Below, piece after piece: positions 19,602-31,092 of a stretch of DNA of 64,000 nt. The DNA is from Candidatus Saccharimonadia bacterium (GTDB taxonomy: Bacteria; Patescibacteriota; Saccharimonadia; UBA4664), in contig JBGTMQ010000017.1 of NCBI GenBank assembly GCA_041743505.1, positions 15,680-79,679 on the forward strand. The letters run 5' to 3'. The notes under the pieces were generated by a model that was not told the DNA's origin, did not search any database, and saw only the letters and a list, made by a program, of their open reading frames with translations. Made by a program: the position numbers and the translations under genes. Within the stretch, counting starts at the first letter, position 1. The number at the start of each line of letters is the position of its first letter.

Positions 19602-21704
19602 CTATACCTCGTTAATAACCGGCAAGATCATCGGATTACGCTTGGTCTTGGAATACAGCAAGTCACCTATTTCATCCCGTAGCTTAAGCTTAAACTTAGA
19701 CCAGTCAGTCGGCTCAGACGTATTACGCTTCTCAAAGGCTTTACGGACTTCAGTCCGGGCCTTATTAATCAGCTCCTCATTCTCCTTCATGTAGATAAAC
19801 CCGCGGCTAATAATATCCGGACTCGAAATCAACCGGCCGGTCTTGCGGCTAACCGTCGCAATGATCATAAATACACCGTCACCTGCCATCGCCAGCCGGT
19901 CGCGCAACACTACACCTTCTACGTCTCCCACGCCAGCTCCATCGACCATTACCATACCGGCCGGCACGCGCTGGCCTTTCTGGGCTCGATTCGGAGTTAA
20001 TTCAAGCACGTCACCATTATCCATCACAAAAACATTGGCCTGAGGTACACCATTTTCGATAGCAATCTCGGCATTATAAACCAAGTGGTGAAACTCGCCA
20101 TGAATTGGCATATAATACTTGGGCTTAATAAGACTAATGAGCTCGGCGGCATCATCACGCTTAGCATGGCCACCCACATGAACCGGCCCATGACCCCGCA
20201 GCCCCTCGGTCATCCGGGCAAAGACGCTGGCGCCCTCGCGCATGAGGTTGTCAATAAGACCCACCACAGACTTCTCATTGCCAGGTATCACGCTCGAACT
20301 AAAGATAACCGTATCACCTGGCTTAATCTTGACGCTCTGATGATCACCAGTCGACATACGCACGAGTGCTGCGTTCTCCTCGCCCTGGGAACCCGTACAC
20401 AGCACCACTATCTGGTTATCCGGCAAGGAAGCGATATCCTGAGCCTTTACCATAAGGCCCTGCGGCACCCGCAGGTAACCCATCTTAACGCAAAGCTCGA
20501 TCGTGGAGAGCATAGATCGGCCCACCACCGCTAACCGCCGGCCCGTTTTAGCCGTAGCATCTATAATCAGTTGAACACGCGTAATAGAACTTGAAAATGT
20601 AGAGATAATAATGCGCCCATTGGCCCGCCCATAGAGGTCGTGAATGGTCGGCTCAACCAATCGCTCGCTACCACCGCGGCCGGGCTGGTCACAGCTAGTA
20701 GAGTCGCTCATGAGCAGCAGTACGCCCTCGGCAGCAATCTCACCCAAGCGGGGCATATCCATCATCTTGCCATCAAGCGGGTCGGGGTCAAGACGCCAGT
20801 CGCCGGTATCTATGATAATTCCAGCCGGCGTCCGCAACACTACGGCAGTAGAATCCGCAATCGTATGAGTTACCCGCACCAGTTCAATATTAAAACTGCC
20901 AAGCTGCACCCGTTCATGCTTATCGGGATCAAGTACCACATACTGAGGCGTATGAATCTTAAATTCCTCGATCTGTTTTGCAACCATACCCAAACTGAGA
21001 CGCGAGCCGTATATCGGCACAGGAAACTTTGGGATCATGTAGCCGGCAGCCCCAATATGGTCCATATGCCCATGAGTAATCACGATTCCGCGAACCTTAT
21101 GACGGTTGCGTTCAAGATAGGTGACGTCCGGGATAATATAGTCGACACCCGGCTGCTTAGCCTCCGGAAAGCCGAAGCCCATATCGAGAATCACAATGTC
21201 GTTACCATACTCAACGGCCATCATATTCTTCCCAATCTCACCAAGACCGCCCAACGGGATAACCCGTATCATCGGCTCACGAGTAACCTGGTTGGCCGTC
21301 CCGCGGCCCTGGATGGCTGGCCGTACCTGGCTTTTCTTGCTCTGCTGAACGCCATCCGTGCCGTTAAAGACACTTTTGTTAACCGGCATCGTATCCAGCG
21401 CCGGGATCAAATCAGTGTGATTCGGTACCTGCTGCTGACCATTTCGCCGCCGGCCACCCCCACGGCCCCCGCCACCACCTCGGCCACCGCCGTTACCGCC
21501 ATTGTTATTGCCGCTACCCTTTTGTGGCCTCGGCTGGGCCAATTTTGGCCCAGGTACACCCTCAGACACCGGTCGGTTCGGGTCCTTAGTCACGGCCGGC
21601 TTTTGAAACCGCGGCGGGCGCGGTGGTCGCTGCGGCCGGTTATTAGGCCGGGCCGAACCTGGCTGAGGAGTATTTGAATTGTTATTGTTATTATTAGGCT
21701 CCAT
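19602..21704 (-). CDS. rnj: ribonuclease J (metallo-beta-lactamase/beta-CASP RNase) with an N-terminal low-complexity extension of about 130 aa (Asn/Pro/Gly/Arg-rich)
   Basis: HGHMDHIG zinc motif, beta-CASP region and C-terminal domain; N-terminus MEPNNNNNNSNTPQ...GGGRGGGGGRGGGRRR. Confidence 0.9.
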   Translation of the reverse strand: MEPNNNNNNSNTPQPGSARPNNRPQRPPRPPRFQKPAVTKDPNRPVSEGVPGPKLAQPRPQKGSGNNNGGNGGGRGGGGGRGGGRRRNGQQQVPNHTDLIPALDTMPVNKSVFNGTDGVQQSKKSQVRPAIQGRGTANQVTREPMIRVIPLGGLGEIGKNMMAVEYGNDIVILDMGFGFPEAKQPGVDYIIPDVTYLERNRHKVRGIVITHGHMDHIGAAGYMIPKFPVPIYGSRLSLGMVAKQIEEFKIHTPQYVVLDPDKHERVQLGSFNIELVRVTHTIADSTAVVLRTPAGIIIDTGDWRLDPDPLDGKMMDMPRLGEIAAEGVLLLMSDSTSCDQPGRGGSERLVEPTIHDLYGRANGRIIISTFSSSITRVQLIIDATAKTGRRLAVVGRSMLSTIELCVKMGYLRVPQGLMVKAQDIASLPDNQIVVLCTGSQGEENAALVRMSTGDHQSVKIKPGDTVIFSSSVIPGNEKSVVGLIDNLMREGASVFARMTEGLRGHGPVHVGGHAKRDDAAELISLIKPKYYMPIHGEFHHLVYNAEIAIENGVPQANVFVMDNGDVLELTPNRAQKGQRVPAGMVMVDGAGVGDVEGVVLRDRLAMAGDGVFMIIATVSRKTGRLISSPDIISRGFIYMKENEELINKARTEVRKAFEKRNTSEPTDWSKFKLKLRDEIGDLLYSKTKRNPMILPVINEV

Positions 21705-21814: not shown

Positions 21815-22393
21815 TTACGTAATTTTCTTTAAAATAGCGGGAATTAAACCAAAATCATCTACCAAAGTTTGCCGCATCGCACCGTTATAAAGCGCGGCTG
21901 CGGGATGAAACAGCGGTAAATATACCTGGCCCATTTTGCGTACCGGCTTCCCATGGGCCTGACTGATCCTCAACTCGGGTAAAAACACACTCATAGCATG
22001 CCGGCCCAGAAACACCACCAGCTTGGGTTTAATAATCGCCAGTTGCCGTTCCAAATACGGGATAAACACCTCAATTTCCTCCGGCTCAGGATCACGGTTA
22101 CCGGGCGGCCGGTACTTGACGATATTGGTGATGTAAATGTCCCCCCGTTCAAGGCCAATGCCGGCCAGCATCTCGTTCAGAAATTTCCCGGCCGCGCCCA
22201 CAAACGGCTCACCCTGCAAATCTTCGTTCTTGCCCGGCGCCTCACCAATAAACACAATCTCCGAATTCGGATTGCCCACCCCAAACACCAATTGGGTCGC
22301 CGTCTCCTTCAAATGCGGCGTCACCCCATCTGCCTCAATGGCTCGGGCAATATCAGCTAACAATTTGGCTTTATCGGTTGCAGGTTCGTCCAT
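21815..22393 (-). CDS. uracil-DNA glycosylase, family 4
   Basis: GEAPGKNEDLQGEPFVGAAGKFL and the C-terminal HPAAALYN motif typical of family-4 UDG. Confidence 0.8.
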   Translation of the reverse strand: MDEPATDKAKLLADIARAIEADGVTPHLKETATQLVFGVGNPNSEIVFIGEAPGKNEDLQGEPFVGAAGKFLNEMLAGIGLERGDIYITNIVKYRPPGNRDPEPEEIEVFIPYLERQLAIIKPKLVVFLGRHAMSVFLPELRISQAHGKPVRKMGQVYLPLFHPAAALYNGAMRQTLVDDFGLIPAILKKIT

Positions 22394-22478: not shown

Positions 22479-24593
22479 CTAATCTTTTTTATTAACCGCT
22501 TTCATACTCAAGTTGAGTCGGCCCTGCCCATCGACCTCCATCAATTTTACACGAACCTCATCACCCACCTTCACCACGTCCTCCACCTTGGCCACTCGCT
22601 CATCGGCCAGCTGGCTGATATGCACTAGGCCGTCCTTGCCCGGCAAAATATTCACAAATGCCCCGAATTCCATCAGTTTCACCACTTTACCGGTATAAAT
22701 AGTGCCCACTTCAGGGTCTTCGGTCAGCCCGCGGATAATCTCGATCGCCCGCTCAGCTCCCTCAGAATCAGTCGAGGCAATCATCACCAGGCCCGAGTCC
22801 TCGATATCGATCTCCACGCCTGTCTCAGCGATAATTTTGTTAATAGTCTCGCCACCCTTACCAATGACCACCGCGATCTTCTCGGGGTTAATCATCAGCT
22901 TGGAGATCCGCGGCGCTAGCGGGCTCAAGTCCGGCCGTGGCTTATCCAGTACTTCTAACATCTTACTCAAGATGTGTGCCCGGCCAATCTTAGCCTGGGC
23001 CAGCGCATCCCGCATAATCGCAGGCGTAATACCCTTCACCTTAATGTCCATCTGCAGAGCCGTAATCCCATCCTCGGTCCCGGCTACCTTAAAGTCCATG
23101 TCGCCGGCAAAATCCTCGGCACCCTGGATATCGGTCAAGATAATGTAATTATCGCCCTCGCCCTTAATGAGTCCCATAGCAATACCCGACACCGGCTTCA
23201 ATATAGGCACACCGGCGTCCATCAAGCTCAACGTCGAGCCACACACGCTCGCCATCGAGCTCGAACCATTCTGGCTCAACACCTCGCTAACGGTCCTAAT
23301 CGTGTACGGAAAGTCCTCCACGGCCGGAATCACCGGCAATAGCGCCCGCTCGGCCAATGCCCCGTGACCAATCTCGCGGCGGCCCGGCGAGCGCATCGGC
23401 TTCACCTCACCGCTCGAGTAACCCGGCGCATTGTAGTGGTGCATGTACCGTTTGGTCGTATCCTCTTCCATCGTGTCTATCATCTGTGCATAGCTCGTAC
23501 TAGCAATCGTCGTCACGTTCAGCACCTGGGTTGTGCCACGAGTAAATAGCGCTGAGCCGTGTGCTCGCGGTAGCAATCCCGCCTGCCCCGAAATCGGCCG
23601 GACCTCAGTCGTCTTGCGCCCATCTGGACGCTCACCGTCCTCCACAATACCCCGCCGGATCTCATAATCAATCACCTTGCGAAAGGCCACTTCCATGTCG
23701 GCATGCTCGTAGTCATTCTCAAATTGCGCCAACACCTCTTTCTCGAGGTTCCGAATCGCATCATGACGTACATAATGGTCTTGATGCCGAATTGCCGGAC
23801 CCAACCGGTCCTTCAAAAATCCCCGGATAGCCTCAGCCAAGTCTTCGTCAGCCCGAAACAGCTCGTATTCCTTGGGCTTCGCACCCAGCTCTTTCACAAT
23901 CTTCTCTTGGAGATCAATCACCGGCTGAACCGCCTTATGCGCTAGCTCAATTGCGGCAATCATTGTCTCCTCGTCCACCTCCATAGCGCCGGCTTCCACC
24001 ATCATAATGGCGTCCCGCGTCGCGGCCACAGTCAAATCAAGCTTGGAGGTCTCCATTTGCTCAGCCGTCGGGAAAGCTACCAGCTCACCGTCTACCAAAC
24101 CAACCCGCACGCCCGCCACCGGCCCCTCAAATGGAGCTCCAGATAGCATCAACGCCGTCGACACCGCCGTCATGGCAATAATATTCGGCGCGTACACCTG
24201 GTCCGCACTCAAAACCATCGCCACCGACTGCACATCATGCCGGTAACCCTTAGGAAACAGTGGCCGCACCGGCCGGTCAATTAGCCGCGCACTCAGCGTG
24301 GCATGCTCACTCGCCCGGCCCTCGCGCTTAATAAACCGCGAGCCACTAATCTTACCAGCCGCATAAAACCGCTCTTCATAGTCAACCAACAATGGGAAAA
24401 AATCAATCCCGTCCCGCGGGTTATTGCTAACTACAGCCGTTCCCAGCACCATCGTGTCGCCATAGCGCACCGTCACGGCGCCATCGGCCAAAAAGGCCAT
24501 CTTGCCGGTTTCAATAGTCAACTCACGCCCACAGAACTCGGTCGTAAACTGCCGAATCGCACCCCCAAACGGGTGAATTATATCTTGCTTCAT
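22479..24593 (-). CDS. pnp: polyribonucleotide nucleotidyltransferase (PNPase)
   Basis: Two RNase PH domains, KH and C-terminal S1 domain (GKVVKLMEFGAFVNILPGKDGLVHISQL); 704 aa. Confidence 0.95.
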   Translation of the reverse strand: MKQDIIHPFGGAIRQFTTEFCGRELTIETGKMAFLADGAVTVRYGDTMVLGTAVVSNNPRDGIDFFPLLVDYEERFYAAGKISGSRFIKREGRASEHATLSARLIDRPVRPLFPKGYRHDVQSVAMVLSADQVYAPNIIAMTAVSTALMLSGAPFEGPVAGVRVGLVDGELVAFPTAEQMETSKLDLTVAATRDAIMMVEAGAMEVDEETMIAAIELAHKAVQPVIDLQEKIVKELGAKPKEYELFRADEDLAEAIRGFLKDRLGPAIRHQDHYVRHDAIRNLEKEVLAQFENDYEHADMEVAFRKVIDYEIRRGIVEDGERPDGRKTTEVRPISGQAGLLPRAHGSALFTRGTTQVLNVTTIASTSYAQMIDTMEEDTTKRYMHHYNAPGYSSGEVKPMRSPGRREIGHGALAERALLPVIPAVEDFPYTIRTVSEVLSQNGSSSMASVCGSTLSLMDAGVPILKPVSGIAMGLIKGEGDNYIILTDIQGAEDFAGDMDFKVAGTEDGITALQMDIKVKGITPAIMRDALAQAKIGRAHILSKMLEVLDKPRPDLSPLAPRISKLMINPEKIAVVIGKGGETINKIIAETGVEIDIEDSGLVMIASTDSEGAERAIEIIRGLTEDPEVGTIYTGKVVKLMEFGAFVNILPGKDGLVHISQLADERVAKVEDVVKVGDEVRVKLMEVDGQGRLNLSMKAVNKKD

Positions 24594-24872
24594 GCAAATC
24601 CTTCTTATGGAGTAATGGCGCTGTACGTACCAGGGACAAGAGATTAAAACAATTTAATCCCAAAGCTCCAACACATACTTACTTCAACGCCACACAAGGT
24701 TAATTAACCTGGATGTGTATTACGGGCATTATAGCATAAAAGCTACCTGAGCTCAAATATACCCCACTTTAAACCTGCAAATAACACTATAATCCAAACC
24801 AACATTATCTATCGAGACAGCAAATGAGCCGGCCAATCTGGCCGACCCTCTTGCTTGATTCATTACCGCCTA

Positions 24873-25139
24873 TTACCGGCGTAGGTCGAGCTTCTTAAGC
24901 ACTTCCTGGTAGCGGTTTACGTCTCTCTTGCTCAAATAGTCGAGCAATGAGCGTCGCTTGCCGACCATCTTTAGAAGACCGCGGCGTGAGTGCTCGTCCT
25001 TCTTGTGCTCTTGCAAATGACGGGTCAAGCTCTTGATCTGCTCAGTAAAGATGCCGATCTGAACCTCCGGCGAACCGGTGTCCTTCTTGTGAACCGCAAG
25101 TCCTGCGATAACCTTAGTTTTCGTGTCAGGCTTTAACAT
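24873..25139 (-). CDS. rpsO: 30S ribosomal protein S15
   Basis: 88-aa; [29 protein letters not shown] is the S15 signature; conserved position upstream of pnp. Confidence 0.95.
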
Positions 25140-25281
25140 AACGAAAGAATACTAGCATTTTTCCCCATATTAAGCAAGTCCCATAGGGGTACCCAGCCAA
25201 CCTCAGTGCTCAAATCGAGCTTATAGCGCTAGGGTTAGCCCTCCAGCCGGAAGTAGTAAATTCCAGCTGGAAGTAGGCAGT

Positions 25282-25431
25282 TTAACACAGAAGAGCTCCC
25301 AGGACGGCGAGAACAATCAGCATGCCAAAAACAAAGAGCATCACTCCTCCCAGTAGCAAGATCAAATACACAACGACGGAAACCACCACAACCATCACGA
25401 TGATGGCCAGAATCGCCTCAATCAAGCACAT
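25282..25431 (-). CDS. candidate 49-aa hydrophobic peptide (MCLIEAILAIIVMVVVVSVVVYLILLLGGVMLFVFGMLIVLAVLGALLC)
   Basis: GGAGAG RBS 7 nt upstream of the ATG; co-directional and immediately downstream of membrane paralog A; below the ORF-track size cutoff. Confidence 0.3.
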   Translation of the reverse strand: MCLIEAILAIIVMVVVVSVVVYLILLLGGVMLFVFGMLIVLAVLGALLC

Positions 25432-25449
25432 CTCTCTCCAGACAACTAC

Positions 25450-25815
25450 TCAGGCCGGATTATGCAGCGGCCCACGTGCCGGCGTTATGCTCTCCGCCAG
25501 TTTGGCCAAAAGTGCCTTGACCTTGGCACCCGCCTCCTTGAGTCGCTTCTTGCGCTTACCAGGACGACGGCTCGCAAACCAACAAACCAGAATGGCAGAA
25601 ACAAGGTAAACGGCCCAATGTATTATCGAGGATGCAGGCTCACCAAGGATAATATTCGACGCCATTACAAACACCGCCATTACCGCTAAAAGTGCACCCA
25701 CCACTGCTAGCAGGGGGTCAGGAGTTGGCAGAATATTCCGCCAAAGACCTATGCTCAACCCCACATTGACCGTGATTCCAAAATAAACACTGATTACAGC
25801 AATCGTATCTAACAT
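25450..25815 (-). CDS. small membrane protein, paralog A (3 TM plus basic C-terminal tail KRKKRLKEAGAKVKALLAKL)
   Basis: GGAGGA RBS before ATG 25815 (the ORF track extends further upstream in frame); tail conserved with paralog B. Confidence 0.5.
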   Translation of the reverse strand: MLDTIAVISVYFGITVNVGLSIGLWRNILPTPDPLLAVVGALLAVMAVFVMASNIILGEPASSIIHWAVYLVSAILVCWFASRRPGKRKKRLKEAGAKVKALLAKLAESITPARGPLHNPA

Positions 25816-25828
25816 GGATCCTCCAAAC

Positions 25829-26206
25829 TCAGGAAGGATTGGGCAGTGGCGCTCGGACCGGCGGCATTGATTTGACCTGCTCAATGAGCTTAGCCAAAAT
25901 GGCCTTAGCCTTGGCACCCGCCTCCCTCAGCCACTTTTTACGCTTACGCGGACCTCGCGGCCATGTGACCCAGCTCCAGATAGTAAGAGCCACGATATAC
26001 AAGACTCTCGCAACAATCGGCTCAGTACCGTCACCAAGCCATATATCAGCGACCACAGTCATCGCCAACAACGCCGCCAGACTGGCCGACAAAATCGAGG
26101 GGACCCAGCTGCCATATAATCTCATCCCACTCCGGACAAGCAGTATTCCTATCAAGCCGAAAACAAGGCTGACACTGGCGATGACAAGATGAAATGCTTC
26201 AAGCAT
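25829..26206 (-). CDS. small membrane protein, paralog B (3 TM plus basic tail KRKKWLREAGAKAKAILAKL)
   Basis: GGAGG RBS before ATG 26206; tandem paralog of 25450..25815. Confidence 0.5.
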   Translation of the reverse strand: MLEAFHLVIASVSLVFGLIGILLVRSGMRLYGSWVPSILSASLAALLAMTVVADIWLGDGTEPIVARVLYIVALTIWSWVTWPRGPRKRKKWLREAGAKAKAILAKLIEQVKSMPPVRAPLPNPS

Positions 26207-26379
26207 ACAAGCCTCCAAGTATTTACGGTAAATCAAGCTGGATTCGGCAATGCCCGACGCACCGGCAACCTGAACTCAATTCATTAAGTCAGCCATTCGC
26301 CAAGGAATCGGTCAAAGAACTCGCCAAACGCGCCCGTATACTATGCACATTTTCAAGTAAAATATCAATATATAACCAT

Positions 26380-27306
26380 CTACTCAGAATGCCGTTTGAG
26401 CGGGATTGTCCACTCCGGCATCGTTGGCTCACCAGGAGCAATCAGCCGCTCTGCGGTAACAGGCTGCTGCCGCTCATCATACGCATCAAGGTGCTTTTGA
26501 GCATGCGGCACACAGAAAGTATCATCATCCAGCCGCCGGTCATGTGGCGTGGGCAATTGAAGCTGCCATACCGCTCGCGTAACGGACGGGCCCTTACAAT
26601 CCTTACAACATCGGAATTCACCGGGGCTACTCTTACTAATGGTTGTTAATGCCTGGTCGGCCAAGCCAATTATTTCCCCATAGGCGTCCCGAAGTTCCTC
26701 GGCCTGAGACCCAGGCGCTTCAAGCATAGTCGTCACCCGGTCTAGCCGCTCAGCCAGCGCTTTATTCAGGGCAGCAACGGTCCCCCAACGCCCTTGGGCG
26801 GCCACAGATTCGCCCAGCTCAGACAAAGGCGCCTCATCCTGGGGCTCCAAGCCACTAAACTGCTCGATCCAAGCCCTGGTATTCTTAGCGTTCTCCATGA
26901 GGTGGATATAGTGCCCAAAGATCATGTGTTCAGTAGCAACAGGGTCTTCATCAAGGTACCGCTCAATACCAGCCAGCATATATCCATCATTCTTAACATT
27001 CCGGACTACGCAATCCCAGTACGAATCAAACGCCTTCTCGCCCTTTAGCTCATTGCCATATCCCGGCTTAATCTCAGACTGCGCCTTCGCGGCCTCCAAA
27101 GACGCCGCCACGACAACCTCCTCCACATAATGCCACTCGCCAGAATATGGCGCCGTTTCACACCAGGCCCCCACTCTGTAAACCGGTCCTTCGGCAGGCT
27201 GCTCCAAAGCCTCCTGATGTTTCGGTACCTCAGGCACCCAGGCCGTAAATTCAGCCCCGTTACCATCAGCCGACTCAGGCCTTGGCCCGCCGCCCCGCTC
27301 GCTCAT
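26380..27306 (-). CDS. hypothetical protein (308 aa, acidic, C-terminal CC-x2-C cluster), translationally coupled to truB
   Basis: Start overlaps the truB stop (ATGA); sits where ribF normally lies between truB and rpsO. Confidence 0.45.
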   Translation of the reverse strand: MSERGGGPRPESADGNGAEFTAWVPEVPKHQEALEQPAEGPVYRVGAWCETAPYSGEWHYVEEVVVAASLEAAKAQSEIKPGYGNELKGEKAFDSYWDCVVRNVKNDGYMLAGIERYLDEDPVATEHMIFGHYIHLMENAKNTRAWIEQFSGLEPQDEAPLSELGESVAAQGRWGTVAALNKALAERLDRVTTMLEAPGSQAEELRDAYGEIIGLADQALTTISKSSPGEFRCCKDCKGPSVTRAVWQLQLPTPHDRRLDDDTFCVPHAQKHLDAYDERQQPVTAERLIAPGEPTMPEWTIPLKRHSE

Positions 27307-27971
27307 GACACATCTCGCAAATGCTGTTCAAGACTAGCCGCCTCAACCTCATCGAGCACCAGCGCTTCGCCCAACCTATATTTGCCCACCTCTGTCCGTA
27401 CCAAACCGCTCAAATAAGCCCCGGTGCCAAGTATCTCGCCCAAATCCTCAGCCAACGTACGAATGTAGGTGCCACTCGAAACTTTTGCCTCCAGTTCTAC
27501 GATCGGATACTCATAACTGACCAGTTTGTTCTCGTAAATCACTACCGGACGCGCTGGAATCTCCACTGTCCGCCCGGCTCTGGCATACTTATACGCCTCC
27601 TTGCCGTCAATCTTGATAGCCGAATAAACGGGCGGAACCTGTGTTATGTGGCCGCTCAACCGCTCTAGAGCCTCCAGGATGGCCTCCTTAGCCGCGGCCG
27701 TATCGGACACGGCTGTCTTTTCGCCTTCGCCATCCCCAGTCGTGCTGGTGGCGCCCAGCGTTACCTGTGCCACATAGCGCTTATCAAGCTTGGTCAAAGC
27801 CTCCGCCTGCTTACAGGCTGTTCCAAACAGCATCAGCATCAAGCCGCTCGCCAACGGGTCCAATGTCCCGGCATGACCAATCTTGCGCACACCGGTAACC
27901 TTGCGCAAACGACGAATCACGTCAAAAGACGTGATTCCAATAGGTTTATCTATCAGTAACAAGCCGTTCAT
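27303..27971 (-). CDS. truB: tRNA pseudouridine(55) synthase TruB (short form, no PUA domain)
   Basis: GHAGTLDPLASGLMLMLFG catalytic-Asp motif; 222 aa. Confidence 0.85.
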   Translation of the reverse strand: MNGLLLIDKPIGITSFDVIRRLRKVTGVRKIGHAGTLDPLASGLMLMLFGTACKQAEALTKLDKRYVAQVTLGATSTTGDGEGEKTAVSDTAAAKEAILEALERLSGHITQVPPVYSAIKIDGKEAYKYARAGRTVEIPARPVVIYENKLVSYEYPIVELEAKVSSGTYIRTLAEDLGEILGTGAYLSGLVRTEVGKYRLGEALVLDEVEAASLEQHLRDVS

Positions 27972-27989: not shown

Positions 27990-29210
27990 TTAGCGGTCTT
28001 CGTCCGCCCGCTTGCCCTCGGGTGAAGCCTTGCGCAATAACTCAGCAGCCGCTGCAAAATCAGCCATCGGAATGGCGGCGGGCTCAGCCGGTTGCGTTTC
28101 CGCATTGATTAATTCAGCCTGCGTAGGCTGCTCTGGCGCCGGCTCAAGCGGAACACTCGGCTCAATGTGATGAGGCTCAATAATCGACTCTTCAGTCGTA
28201 CCTGGAGCCGTCGTGCGCTCTGCATCCGGATTAGCTACCCGCTCAACTGCGGCGGCCTCAGGCTGCGAGCGGCGAGCCAACTCCTGACGCGGCGCCTCCT
28301 GTTGACGTGGAGCCTCTTGCGAACGCACAGCTTCTTGCTGGCGCTCAGGCTGGCTCGGCCGGTCGCCACGCGAGCGGTCATCGCGTGAACGGTCGTCACG
28401 GCGGTCACTACGCTCTGAACGATGATCACGCTCGCCACCATCACGACCACCCTCACGGCTATCGCGGAACAAACCTTTCACCACCACCTGCTGCTTAGCT
28501 CCAGCAGCCATCATCTGCGCAGCCACTGTTAGGCTCTTAGAGGTCGTGTGACTGGCCGTAAACCGGTCCGTTGAGGCCATGAGACCGGTCAGCATCACCG
28601 TAGCGATATCAGCATCAATCAACCCGCTCTGCAGGCTCTCGCTGGTAGCTACCAAAATCTCGCACAAGCTAGAAGCCGTTGGCTCAATCAAGTTAATGGC
28701 GCCATAGCTCTCATTCGTGCGATGAAAGTCCAAATTAATAACCGGGATCGAGTTAAACAATCCCTGGTTCTCAGCATAAACCCGGTCAATACGAGCCCGC
28801 GTTGGCACACCCAAAACAATGGCGATGTCATAGTGGAAATCACCGTACCCGAACGTCACGTCGCTCGGCGCAAACCCGCCTTTAAACGGCGTAATATACA
28901 CGTTGAGCTTGCCGTCTTCTACCTCGTAGCGCAACTTATCAACCTCAGCCTTATTTACATCCACCTTCAGAATAAAATCACGCATCCCGCTCAAGCGCTT
29001 ATCAACGCCTGTCTGGTCCAAAAACTGAACCGATTGAGGCAGCTGATCGCTAATTATGGCGCTAACCTTCTTGCCAAACTTGCGCAGTATCGCCGCTAAG
29101 GCAATAACCGCCGCTACCTGGTCTGCACTAGGATGCTGGCCACTCGTAATTAGAATAGTTTCCGCCTGGCGGATCGCTTCGGATGTTTGCTGTTTGGGTG
29201 TCAGGTCCAT
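27990..29210 (-). CDS. DHH-DHHA1 phosphoesterase (NrnA-like nanoRNase/pAp phosphatase) with a C-terminal Arg/Asp/Glu/Ser-rich disordered tail of about 160 aa
   Basis: DHH motif region and GGGH-like DHHA1 region in the first 250 aa; tail RDSREGGRDGGERDHRSERSDRRDDRSRDDRSRGDR... Confidence 0.7.
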   Translation of the reverse strand: MDLTPKQQTSEAIRQAETILITSGQHPSADQVAAVIALAAILRKFGKKVSAIISDQLPQSVQFLDQTGVDKRLSGMRDFILKVDVNKAEVDKLRYEVEDGKLNVYITPFKGGFAPSDVTFGYGDFHYDIAIVLGVPTRARIDRVYAENQGLFNSIPVINLDFHRTNESYGAINLIEPTASSLCEILVATSESLQSGLIDADIATVMLTGLMASTDRFTASHTTSKSLTVAAQMMAAGAKQQVVVKGLFRDSREGGRDGGERDHRSERSDRRDDRSRDDRSRGDRPSQPERQQEAVRSQEAPRQQEAPRQELARRSQPEAAAVERVANPDAERTTAPGTTEESIIEPHHIEPSVPLEPAPEQPTQAELINAETQPAEPAAIPMADFAAAAELLRKASPEGKRADEDR

Positions 29211-29407
29211 GGAGGTAGCTATGCTCGCTTAAAGAATCTACCAGCCTACCACATAATTGCTAATCTTGTCAAGAGTAATGGTTATGGTTAATTAAATGGG
29301 TTGGAAAGCTATTCGCTCTCCAACCCATTAACCATCCCGCTTACCGCGAAAAAGTACCACATATGAAACTAGCGCAGACGAACTAATCTCTAGACAACTG
29401 TTCAGAC

Positions 29408-29602
29408 TTATTCGCCGGCTCGCTCTGCTCTCGTCGCAGCATTACCCATATCTGTAGCTCTGGCCCCTTGTTCATGAACAGCGACAGTGCCCGGTGCAAT
29501 CTCTAACCTGTCAGCGATCTCTTTGGTCGTCATGCCCTCTGCCCGACCAAACCTTACCTCTTCCTCCATTTCAGTATGATCTCTGAACGAGCGTATTCCC
29601 AT
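29408..29602 (-). CDS. small HTH protein (sigma-70 region-4/LuxR-like helix-turn-helix)
   Basis: GMTTKEIADRLEIAPGTVAVH resembles a region-4-type HTH; flanked by 21-bp direct repeats. Confidence 0.35.
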   Translation of the reverse strand: MGIRSFRDHTEMEEEVRFGRAEGMTTKEIADRLEIAPGTVAVHEQGARATDMGNAATRAERAGE

Positions 29603-29825
29603 AGCAAATCCCCTTTCAGGTCGTCTGAGCCCTCATACTCATAATGAGCTACTAATTCAATATTTCAAGCAAACAACCCCAGGCATTGACATGCTTTTAC
29701 CCGCATAGCCAAGAGTAATAGTTATGGTTACAGAGATAAGTAAAAATCCACTGGTGCTGAGTCGCAAAGAAACGCGCCCCAGCCAAACGGCGCAGGAGCG
29801 CGTTTCACTGGGGCGTAATGTTGGG

Positions 29826-30389
29826 TCAGGACTGGACCGAGGTTACCGCTGCCCGATCACGTGCAACAGTAACGAGGAAACGCGCCCCAGCCAAACCAAG
29901 GCCACGCTGGCGGCGCAGCTCCTTGATGGCAGTGATGACGCTGCCGCTTTTGGCGTAAAGCCAGGCGGCCAGCTTGGCATCGGACAGCTCAGCGAGCTCC
30001 GGATCAGTACCTTGTACCGCGGCTTTCTCGCGCCGGACACGAACCTGTGCCGCCGCAACGATATCCCTGGCCTCCAGAAGACCCAGGCCTAGGTGAAGAT
30101 CCTGGCGGAGCTTCTTGATTACCCAGATCATCTGGCCGCCAGCAGAAACAAGCTGATAGGCCAGGTCGTCGGCAGTCGGCACAATGGGGACGGTTTCATT
30201 GTCAACTACATACTCTGTGGCATCGAGTGTCACAGGAACAACACTGCCGGTCAGATAATACTTGGCTATGTAGTTTCGAGCATCACCCTCACTCTCGAAG
30301 AAAGCGATGAGTTGCAAGGCAGGCCCAACGTTTGGCACACGGTAATCATGCAGAATTCCATACTGAGGTGCGATCATGTCATACTCCAT
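29826..30389 (-). CDS. hypothetical protein with two C-terminal ribosomal L7/L12-CTD-like repeats
   Basis: VIKKLRQDLHLGLGLLEARDIV and ITAIKELRRQRGLGLAGARFLV resemble the L7/L12 C-terminal GLGLKEAKDLV motif; likely start MEYDMIAPQ. Confidence 0.4.
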   Translation of the reverse strand: MEYDMIAPQYGILHDYRVPNVGPALQLIAFFESEGDARNYIAKYYLTGSVVPVTLDATEYVVDNETVPIVPTADDLAYQLVSAGGQMIWVIKKLRQDLHLGLGLLEARDIVAAAQVRVRREKAAVQGTDPELAELSDAKLAAWLYAKSGSVITAIKELRRQRGLGLAGARFLVTVARDRAAVTSVQS

Positions 30390-30580
30390 CTCGGTGGGTA
30401 AGGGTGACGTGACTATAGTTATAATAGCATACTTTGCTAAATTTTGCAAGTTTATCTTCTATCTTCAGCTCTATTTCACCTCCTCGATCAAGTAGGGCGA
30501 ACAAAGCGGAATATATCACAACATATACATTGAACAATGTAAAACAAAAAGCCTGTTCCACAACAATCCAGCACCGGTTA

Positions 30581-30609
30581 TTTACATTCCTGCCCAAATA
30601 AGCTATAGT
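30581..30609 (+). promoter_or_regulatory. sigma70-type promoter TTTACA-17-TATAGT for rpsT
   Basis: Hexamers with 17-nt spacing about 65 nt upstream of the rpsT ATG. Confidence 0.45.
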
Positions 30610-30675
30610 CTCCTGGTATTTGCCGGCCGGATGCGCGCCGCAATTTTGTATCAACCCCACACTAAGGAATCCTTT

Positions 30676-31092
30676 ATGCCCATCATCAAATCAGCTATGA
30701 AGCGCGCCAAGCAGGCCATTGTACGCCGCAGCCGCAATCTCCAGGTCAAACGTGCCGTCAAGCAGGACATTACCGCCCTGCACACGGCCATCACCGAAAA
30801 CAAGGTCGCCGAACTCCCGGAAAAGCTAGCCGCCGCTTACTCCGAGATCGACCGGGCCGTCAAGAAAGGCACGCTGCACAAAAACACCGCTGCCCGCCGC
30901 AAAAGCCAGCTGGCCAGCCACGTAGCCAAGGCCTCCGGCGACATCAAGACTGAAGAGCCCAAGACCACCAAGGGTGCCGGCAAGAAAGCCGCTACCACCA
31001 AAACAGCAGCCAAGAAAACCACTGCTACAAAGACTGCAGCCAAAAAGCCGGCCGCCAAAAAAACTCCAGCCAAGAAAACTGAGAGTAAATAA
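30676..31092 (+). CDS. rpsT: 30S ribosomal protein S20 with a Lys/Ala/Thr-rich histone-H1-like C-terminal tail
   Basis: MPIIKSAMKRAKQAIVRRSRN...GTLHKNTAARRKSQL matches S20; followed by about 50 aa of KK/AA/TT repeats. Confidence 0.85.
   Translation: MPIIKSAMKRAKQAIVRRSRNLQVKRAVKQDITALHTAITENKVAELPEKLAAAYSEIDRAVKKGTLHKNTAARRKSQLASHVAKASGDIKTEEPKTTKGAGKKAATTKTAAKKTTATKTAAKKPAAKKTPAKKTESK

Follow-up and report, generated by a model that had tools for sequence, protein, structure and literature searches.

A small stretch of orphan genes separating truB from rpsO in a Saccharimonadia genome, a probable accessory islet

In Actinobacteria, Firmicutes and other bacteria, the genes truB, ribF, rpsO and pnp follow one another in this order. 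The region considered here is its counterpart in a genome of Saccharimonadia (TM7, candidate phyla radiation (CPR)), and more precisely the 2.16-kb stretch between truB and rpsO, which encodes four open reading frames (ORFs), named X308, Mem1, Mem2 and pep49. It lies within a window of 64,000 nucleotides (nt), the whole stretch of DNA that was analysed (GenBank assembly GCA_041743505.1, contig JBGTMQ010000017.1, positions 15,680 to 79,679 of the forward strand). As in the described order, truB, rpsO and pnp are successive on one strand; the two arrangements differ in that ribF is found neither here nor in Saccharimonadia relatives, and in that the inserted genes are unrelated to RibF. With flexible genomic islets, the locus shares conserved flanks, a content that varies even among the closest relatives, mostly orphan cargo, internal tandem duplications and a second such site at the neighbouring S20-DHH boundary, but it differs from them in spanning only 0-2.9 kb, in its native composition and in that no tRNA, integrase or repeat boundaries were found. 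The 2.16-kb stretch is likely to be a lineage-specific accessory-gene islet located at a permissive transcription-unit boundary, and not a substitute for ribF.

The islet proteins also have described counterparts of looser likeness. Class I holins have three transmembrane (TM) segments, an outside N terminus, an inside C terminus and a basic C-terminal tail. Mem1 and Mem2 are like them in size, number of TM segments, predicted topology, basic cytoplasmic tail and adjacency of related genes; however, they have no holin-family sequence match and no endolysin or phage context, and their tail is a conserved amphipathic helix with a Pro-rich end under purifying selection, not mere charge. The small protein pep49 resembles type I toxins and the microproteins KdpF and AcrZ in being shorter than 50 amino acids (aa), nearly all hydrophobic and placed at the end of an apparent membrane-protein operon, whereas it differs from them in having no charged tail, no detectable homologue and no antisense RNA or Rfam match. 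Proteins of the DksA/TraR type combine a helical bundle or coiled coil with a C-terminal Cys-rich zinc module, a layout echoed in X308 by a long bundle and a CxxC...CxxH motif.

Relatives of the locus were collected by TruB scans of genome contigs and metagenome contigs, which yielded 26 Saccharimonadia loci containing both truB and rpsO, with a flank of 6-8 kb on each side (less on short contigs). TruB of the window is at most 76% identical to that of Saccharimonadia metagenome-assembled genomes, with values of 62-76% for the closer metagenome-assembled genomes and metagenome contigs and 47-55% for the more distant ones (79-91% and 48-61%, respectively, for rpsO). The core order DHH-truB, rpsO, pnp(-UDG-RNase J) is kept in all 26 loci. 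A first-pass annotation of this DNA had placed the four genes in the ribF position of the truB-ribF-rpsO-pnp cluster, a premise that the comparison does not bear out. Indeed, ribF was found in none of the 26 loci, neither after truB nor elsewhere in the fetched flanks, and RibF of locus L025 used as a query has no match in the 64-kb window or in any of the Saccharimonadia loci. As a positive control, the same actinobacterial RibF finds ribF directly after truB in L028, L039 and L040 (1e-38 to 1e-46); together with L025, these are four non-CPR loci in which ribF lies between truB and rpsO. Several Proteobacteria and Desulfobacterota loci have truB followed by rpsO with no ribF match. The truB-rpsO gap measures 115 bp or less in 10 of the 26 relatives (24, 35, 55, 55, 56, 59, 69, 86, 103 and 115 bp) and 378-2924 bp in the other 16, and that of the present genome (2164 bp) is the second longest. 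Since ribF is absent from the class at this locus and truB and rpsO can be directly adjacent, no ribF slot is being occupied, and the ancestral arrangement of the class, as read from synteny, is truB directly followed by rpsO. Loss of FAD synthase is known in the related Parcubacteria (PMC4508563), as is external cofactor dependence for a soil Saccharibacterium (bioRxiv 10.1101/211649).

The flanks of the gap are constant across relatives, but the four-gene set at the site is not conserved, with the exception of two tandem Mem-like membrane ORFs in L007 (70% TruB identity), the only relative with the Mem family. Among the four closest relatives (74-76% TruB identity), no two gaps are in the same state (Table 1). 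Small families that recur are few. DUF5999 (PF19462) is present in five loci, L003 and L005 have one family in common, L012 and L013 share another on the minus strand, and the Mem family is seen in the window and L007. DUF5999, which we take to be typical of Actinobacteria, may have come into the gap by gene transfer from actinobacterial hosts; a mention of it in the literature concerns Streptomyces. Tandem duplications are also observed in the same gap of other lineages (L018, L012 and L007; Table 1). No described hot spot of Saccharibacteria at the truB-rpsO site was found in the literature.

The four islet ORFs all look like real genes. A codon-usage log-odds model, built from 25 of the window's long ORFs and used to compare six frames per ORF, gives the annotated frame the top score in each case; GC content and codon usage of the islet match those of the host genome, and the starts assigned to Mem1 and Mem2 are those chosen by the public gene caller.

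X308 (codon score of 0.31 in frame) begins within the end of truB (...GTC ATG A), where the TGA stop overlaps the X308 ATG. The ATGA overlap reported by the first-pass annotation can be read at the truB stop (27303) and the X308 start (27306), and its description of an acidic protein of 308 aa agrees with the count of 52 D+E vs 30 K+R. The protein is predicted to be cytoplasmic. When 1.84 billion cluster representatives were scanned in full with HMMER, its sole homologue was P0003 (287 aa, 37% identity, E 9e-48), and a profile of both sequences found no further members among 5.8 billion clusters, which leaves a family of two known members. A word-indexed protein search with X308 returned only the query itself, and a sensitive comparison with all gap ORFs of the relatives returned nothing. 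The existence of P0003 indicates that the family is real. P0003 is encoded on a 4.2-kb contig, where its start shares 1 nt with the end of a preceding PF00343 phosphorylase gene and the genes that follow are on the minus strand; because of this position behind a phosphorylase gene, the function of X308 is tied to neither truB, rpsO nor flavins. Each of the two family members (2/2 cases) is linked in this way to the 3' terminus of a housekeeping gene. Searches with X308 gave no Pfam (E 0.1 or better), PHROG, NCBIfam, PADLOC or PDB-sequence match and no viral-contig, phage or plasmid match. The possibility that X308 is a divergent RibF, envisaged by the first-pass annotation itself, is ruled out by the Pfam and NCBIfam nulls, with neither a FAD_syn (PF06574) nor a Flavokinase (PF01687) domain detected, and by a null BLASTP comparison with RibF of L025 (best E 0.085 across 10 residues).

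The C-terminal CCxxC cluster noted earlier is present as C233-C234-x2-C237, but its first Cys (C233) is replaced by Arg in P0003, and the conserved unit is instead C234-x2-C237...H255-D-R...C265-x2-H268. The four Cys/His residues C234, C237, C265 and H268, arranged as two CxxC/H knuckles in the manner of zinc modules, suggest that the C terminus of X308 is a putative zinc knuckle or ribbon that may bind metal. An AlphaFold2 model computed from the two-sequence alignment (predicted local distance difference test (pLDDT) 68.7 overall, predicted template modelling score 0.59) consists of a disordered segment (residues 1-36), a small beta-beta-alpha-beta unit (residues 42-93), a four-helix bundle (residues 96-224) and a beta-rich C-terminal module of lower confidence. 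Confidence is mostly 75-92 per 10-residue block over residues 41-220, with values of 51-67 at residues 151-170, and the zinc-module region has pLDDT values of 52-76. Fold searches with the model retrieved generic helical bundles only and no known-fold match.

Mem1 and Mem2 are paralogues (42% identity; alignment score 22 standard deviations (SD) over shuffles) each with three peaks of hydropathy and a tail rich in basic residues, KRKK(W/R)L(R/K)EAGAK(A/V)KA(I/L)LAKL. A GGAGG motif precedes the ATG by 5 nt in Mem1 and by 4 nt in Mem2, and Mem2 starts 13 nt past the Mem1 stop, so that the initial description of two paralogous three-TM proteins with GGAGG sites and a conserved basic tail holds in full. 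Each protein carries 13-15 K+R, concentrated in the tail, which in Mem1 ends with PLPNPS. This distribution of charges suggests an N-out/C-in topology in which the basic amphipathic tail is cytoplasmic. The tail core shows a dN (nonsynonymous substitutions per site) of 0.17 and a dS (synonymous substitutions per site) of 1.22 in codon analysis (dN/dS ~0.14), whereas the TM region has a dN of 0.77 and a saturated dS. The low dN/dS of the tail, together with its dS of 1.22, points to an old tandem duplication with the tail under purifying selection, and not to recent gene conversion. Nothing above threshold was obtained for either protein in Pfam, PHROGs, NCBIfam, PADLOC or PDB-sequence searches; DUF3995 (PF13160) matched a 155-aa longer reading of the Mem2 ORF below threshold (21.5 bits vs the Pfam cut-off of 34.3) and did not match Mem1, and a weak match was seen to phrog_9343 (E 0.057), a family of unknown function. 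A word-indexed protein search with Mem1 found the query only, a three-sequence Mem alignment found nothing in metagenomes, and the family has no relatives in viral contigs.

The 49-aa hydrophobic ORF with a ribosome-binding site that the first-pass annotation had added after these two genes does exist. Its start lies 18 nt past the Mem2 stop, GGAG is found 4 nt before its ATG, and its grand average of hydropathy (2.88) is twice the next highest among the 556 ORFs of the window. It is not hidden, however, being already a called gene on both public contigs (NCBI and Logan) in which this sequence occurs. The sequence of pep49, which starts with MCLIEAILAIIV..., contains no Lys or Arg and one Glu. 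Its codon score of 0.254 exceeds that of 99.8% of off-frame 50-codon windows, and the gene has a strict three-nt periodicity, with T in the second codon position, where GC is 0.22. Pfam, PHROGs, NCBIfam, PADLOC and PDB-sequence searches with pep49 yielded no match above threshold. No homologue was detected in any of the 26 relatives' loci, L007 and a sensitive gap-ORF comparison included, and pep49 is a singleton cluster among ~15 billion proteins. This lack of conservation (0 of the sampled relatives) had been named beforehand as speaking against the peptide; it is a weak test, as the collections hold no relative nearer than 76% TruB identity. An origin of pep49 as a truncated third Mem copy is not supported, the alignment scoring only 0.3-3.3 SD over shuffles with no DNA repeat. 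With fewer than 60 aa and a TM segment, pep49 has the form of type I toxin-like ORFs. No Rfam family was found in the region, a relaxed threshold giving one chance-level match only; a plus-strand promoter-like site (25872-25900) is directed away from pep49, and no antisense RNA or partner system was identified for it. On balance, we lean towards a translated microprotein, which would probably be a two-helix membrane protein and unconserved.

The 60 nt upstream of rpsO were aligned in 18 Saccharimonadia loci (window, L002-L021). The motif TTG-N17-TGnTAnnAT is invariant 9-11 nt before the rpsO ATG in 18/18 loci, with no Shine-Dalgarno sequence, and in loci with tiny gaps it lies inside the 3' coding end of truB. 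Given this invariance, rpsO appears to own its promoter, of a leaderless type, and a leaderless or near-leaderless rpsO mRNA is suggested for the whole class. On the other side of this promoter, a stem-loop overlapping the pep49 stop has a minimum free energy of -28.5 kcal/mol (z = -4.15), a stability reached by 0/200 shuffles. It is built of two 15-nt direct repeats, CTACTTCC(A/G)GCTGGA (25242-25276), 20 bp apart and each containing a near-palindrome; the repeat occurs nowhere else in the window, and its 11-nt core is absent from 52 other loci (L002-L053). The stem-loop is likely to be the 3' end or a stabiliser of a Mem1-Mem2-pep49 transcript, and the repeat dyads with their two-helical-turn spacing upstream of the rpsO promoter would also fit paired protein-binding sites. 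The 173-nt spacer between X308 and Mem1 has an ordinary RNA structure (z = 0.34) and no terminator-like site. Co-transcription with truB, and translational coupling to this gene, are very probable for X308, while co-transcription of the islet with rpsO is unnecessary and probably limited. The earlier proposal that the cassette is co-transcribed with both neighbours is thus retained for truB, on the ATGA overlap of X308, and weakened for rpsO, which has its own promoter in 18/18 loci behind the -28.5 kcal/mol hairpin. Further downstream, the distance between the pnp promoter-like site and the pnp ATG points to a pnp leader that recalls the autoregulated one in Escherichia coli.

Taken as an accessory islet, the stretch could have arisen as follows. 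As the rpsO promoter abuts the start codon, insertion between the truB stop and this promoter would disturb neither gene, and the small genes received there would differ from lineage to lineage. In L007, neither X308 nor pep49 accompanies the Mem-like pair, which indicates that X308 occurs apart from the Mem genes, and the islet may thus be a composite of two independent modules. In the first, X308 would be a 3' passenger of the DHH-truB transcript by virtue of the stop/start overlap. The second would be a tight operon of Mem1, Mem2 and pep49, with spacers of 13 and 18 nt and strong GGAGG sites, ended by the hairpin, after which rpsO transcription would start afresh from its own promoter. Within the Mem pair, the TM parts would have been free to diverge while the basic amphipathic tail and Pro-rich end were kept by purifying selection. 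More tentatively, Mem1 and Mem2 might form a hetero-oligomeric membrane complex, their shared tails might dock one common partner (an anionic surface or a cytoplasmic protein), pep49 might be a hydrophobic accessory subunit of this complex, and X308 could be a zinc-stabilised protein-binding adaptor and not an enzyme. What we say of promoter and terminator function, of membrane topology, of complex formation and of zinc binding is in each case inferred from sequence.

Several points weigh against the islet model as formulated. The operon structure is deduced from sequence patterns only, the promoter upstream of Mem1 is weak (9/12) and the hairpin has no U-tract. Independence of the modules is drawn from one relative for Mem and one sequence for X308; with the closest relative at 76% TruB identity, the pattern fits gain here as well as loss elsewhere and sets no age for either; and the functional model of the Mem proteins, pep49 and X308 is speculative and held at low confidence. 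A competing view makes the cassette a functional part of a truB-rpsO-pnp operon, co-transcribed with both neighbours and occupying, perhaps replacing, the ribF slot. The common strand of all genes, the ATGA overlap of X308 with truB, the lack of a canonical terminator between X308 and Mem1 and the position of ribF in L025, L028, L039 and L040 are all compatible with it. It is nevertheless very unlikely, having already been largely refuted by synteny: ribF occupies the position in 0/26 relatives, 10 of which have no room for a gene, and, apart from the Mem-like pair of one locus, the four genes have no conserved counterpart there. Moreover, the sole X308 homologue sits behind a phosphorylase gene, X308 has no RibF similarity, and rpsO has its own conserved promoter with a strong hairpin before it. 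Still less probable is an origin of the islet from a mobile element, prophage or defence island that inserted at this site and of which a remnant is left. Hypervariability of the site with unrelated cargo, recurrent tandem duplications and the occurrence of X308 in two unrelated contexts could be read in this sense, but the ORF lists contain no ORF of integrase, transposase or recombinase size, no direct or inverted repeats flank the islet, and the only tRNA is at 52.4 kb, with none nearby. Likewise, X308 has no phage, plasmid or viral-contig matches, the Mem family no viral-contig matches, PADLOC nothing, and GC and codon usage are host-like.

What the membrane genes do invites two further alternatives. 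One takes Mem1, Mem2 and pep49 as a membrane-permeabilising module (holin/antiholin-like, or a toxic peptide with partners) that a cell of the Saccharibacteria type, fixed to its host bacterium, would direct against itself, its competitors or the host. The anatomy of Mem1 and Mem2 is in its favour (121-125 aa, three TM segments, predicted N-out/C-in topology, a very basic tail, adjacent paralogues), as are the strong ribosome-binding sites and the size and hydrophobicity that pep49 has in common with type I toxins. These resemblances are analogies; no holin, toxin or defence family was recovered in Pfam, PHROGs, NCBIfam or PADLOC, there are no viral-contig relatives (phage and plasmid records having been searched with X308 only), the surrounding genes (DHH, truB, rpsO, pnp, UDG and RNase J) all have housekeeping roles and include neither an endolysin nor phage genes, and pep49 lacks positive charges and the charged tail usual in type I toxins. 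Such a module is accordingly unlikely. The other alternative is that pep49 has no function, being what is left of a decayed membrane-protein gene or an ORF that arose by chance; this is a serious possibility, though not the one we lean towards. Conservation in 0/26 relatives, even in L007 with its Mem pair, and the singleton status among ~15 billion proteins fit it, as does the absence of basic residues, unusual for a membrane protein. The GGAG-ATG spacing of 4 nt is short, but Mem2 has the same. Against a fortuitous ORF stand the period-3 signal with its codon score above 99.8% of off-frame windows, a hydrophobicity far past any chance ORF of the window, the packing 18 nt after Mem2 and the unit-closing hairpin 3' of the gene. 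A codon signal would persist in a decayed fragment, and a relic is therefore the main alternative to a microprotein.

A second variable islet is observed at the divergent S20-DHH boundary (29211-30675), where 1.47 kb contain three lineage-specific ORFs (Table 1) with no homologue in the relatives' loci. The same gap measures 127-218 bp in many relatives and 0.6-2.3 kb in several. In Saccharimonadia genomes, a rigid core order would thus seem to go together with small islets that evolve fast at the boundaries of transcription units. A bolder version, in which the truB-rpsO and S20-DHH boundaries are cradles for new small genes that emerge or arrive there and are soon replaced, pep49 a newborn microprotein and the Mem pair a new host-contact module (for example a pore or anchor), is doubtful. 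Low-complexity regions are present in three neighbouring proteins: an N-terminal extension of ~130 aa rich in N, P, G and R in RNase J, a C-terminal tail of ~160 aa rich in R, D, E and P in the DHH protein, and a C-terminal tail rich in K, A and T in S20. In every 2-kb bin of 1-64000 the plus strand has a negative GC skew, and most genes are on the minus strand, which places the whole window on one replichore with the minus strand leading.

Table 1. Features of the window and of the truB-rpsO gap in related loci (positions refer to the sequence named in the second column)
Feature	Sequence	Position	Strand	Description
RNase J	Window	19602-21704	minus	
UDG	Window	21815-22393	minus	
pnp	Window	22479-24593	minus	
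pnp promoter-like site	Window	24728-24756	minus	Strong; TTGAGC-17-TATAAT with upstream TG; ~135 nt before pnp ATG
Terminator-like hairpin	Window	24826-24848	minus	10-bp, GC-rich, after rpsO
rpsO (ribosomal protein S15)	Window	24873-25139	minus	PF00312 in public gene call; first conserved gene past islet
Predicted rpsO promoter	Window	25149-25177	minus	TTGCTT-17 nt-(TGc)TAGTAT; ends 9 nt before ATG; no Shine-Dalgarno
Stem-loop	Window	25226-25288	minus	Overlaps pep49 stop; 11-bp core stem at 25242-25271
pep49	Window	25282-25431	minus	49-aa ORF
Mem2	Window	25450-25815	minus	121 aa; start ATG 25815
Mem2 tail-coding segment	Window	25499-25565	minus	Partner of Mem1 67-nt repeat
Mem1	Window	25829-26206	minus	125 aa; start ATG 26206
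Mem1 tail-coding segment	Window	25887-25953	minus	67-nt direct repeat (79% identity) with 25499-25565
Weak promoter-like site (candidate)	Window	26340-26368	minus	TTGATA-17-CATAGT; 9/12 consensus; in X308-Mem1 spacer
X308	Window	26380-27306	minus	308-aa ORF
X308 C-terminal motif	Window	26503-26607	minus	C234-x2-C237 ... H255-D-R ... C265-x2-H268; invariant between X308 and P0003
truB	Window	27303-27971	minus	Pfam TruB_N 4e-48 and TruB_C_2; last conserved gene of DHH-truB unit
DHH phosphoesterase	Window	27990-29210	minus	
S20-DHH islet ORF	Window	29408-29602		64 aa; GerE/sigma region-4-like helix-turn-helix
S20-DHH islet ORF	Window	29826-30449		183-207 aa; L7/L12 C-terminal-domain-like repeats
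S20-DHH islet ORF	Window	30379-30660		93 aa
S20	Window	30676-31092		
truB-rpsO gap	L002			Empty
truB-rpsO gap	L004			231-aa ORF
truB-rpsO gap	L054			139-aa ORF
truB-rpsO gap	L006			DUF5999 protein and other ORFs
DUF5999 in gap	L006	8889-9200		Five DUF5999 genes in all: 3 by Pfam, 2 by BLASTP
DUF5999 in gap	L009	9162-9395		
DUF5999 in gap	L010	8999-9223		
DUF5999 in gap	L055	6897-7229		
DUF5999 in gap	L057	1462-1677		
Tandem duplication in gap	L018	8753-10554		Segment for 103-aa membrane protein (MARSVQIGL...) repeated twice
Tandem duplication in gap	L012	8763-9708	minus	Two paralogues of ~140 aa
Tandem duplication in gap	L007	8690-9611		Two membrane ORFs in tandem

The orphan genes described here make up a genuine accessory islet of a kind that is ordinary in CPR genomes; as orphan genes are abundant there, the findings will not surprise a specialist. 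They remove a false lead, since ribF has not been displaced: its absence from this locus throughout the class accords with the cofactor dependence known in CPR bacteria. Two orphan families with evidence of selection are also brought to light, namely X308, which has two members and a fold model that is confident in part and matches no known structure, and Mem, where the evidence comes from the tail. The rpsO promoter abutting the start codon hints at leaderless translation of rpsO throughout the class. Finally, two hypervariable sites are now mapped in a rigidly syntenic neighbourhood of translation genes in Saccharimonadia, and these could be of use as naturally insertion-tolerant positions when genetic tools are built for the few TM7 strains that can be cultivated.

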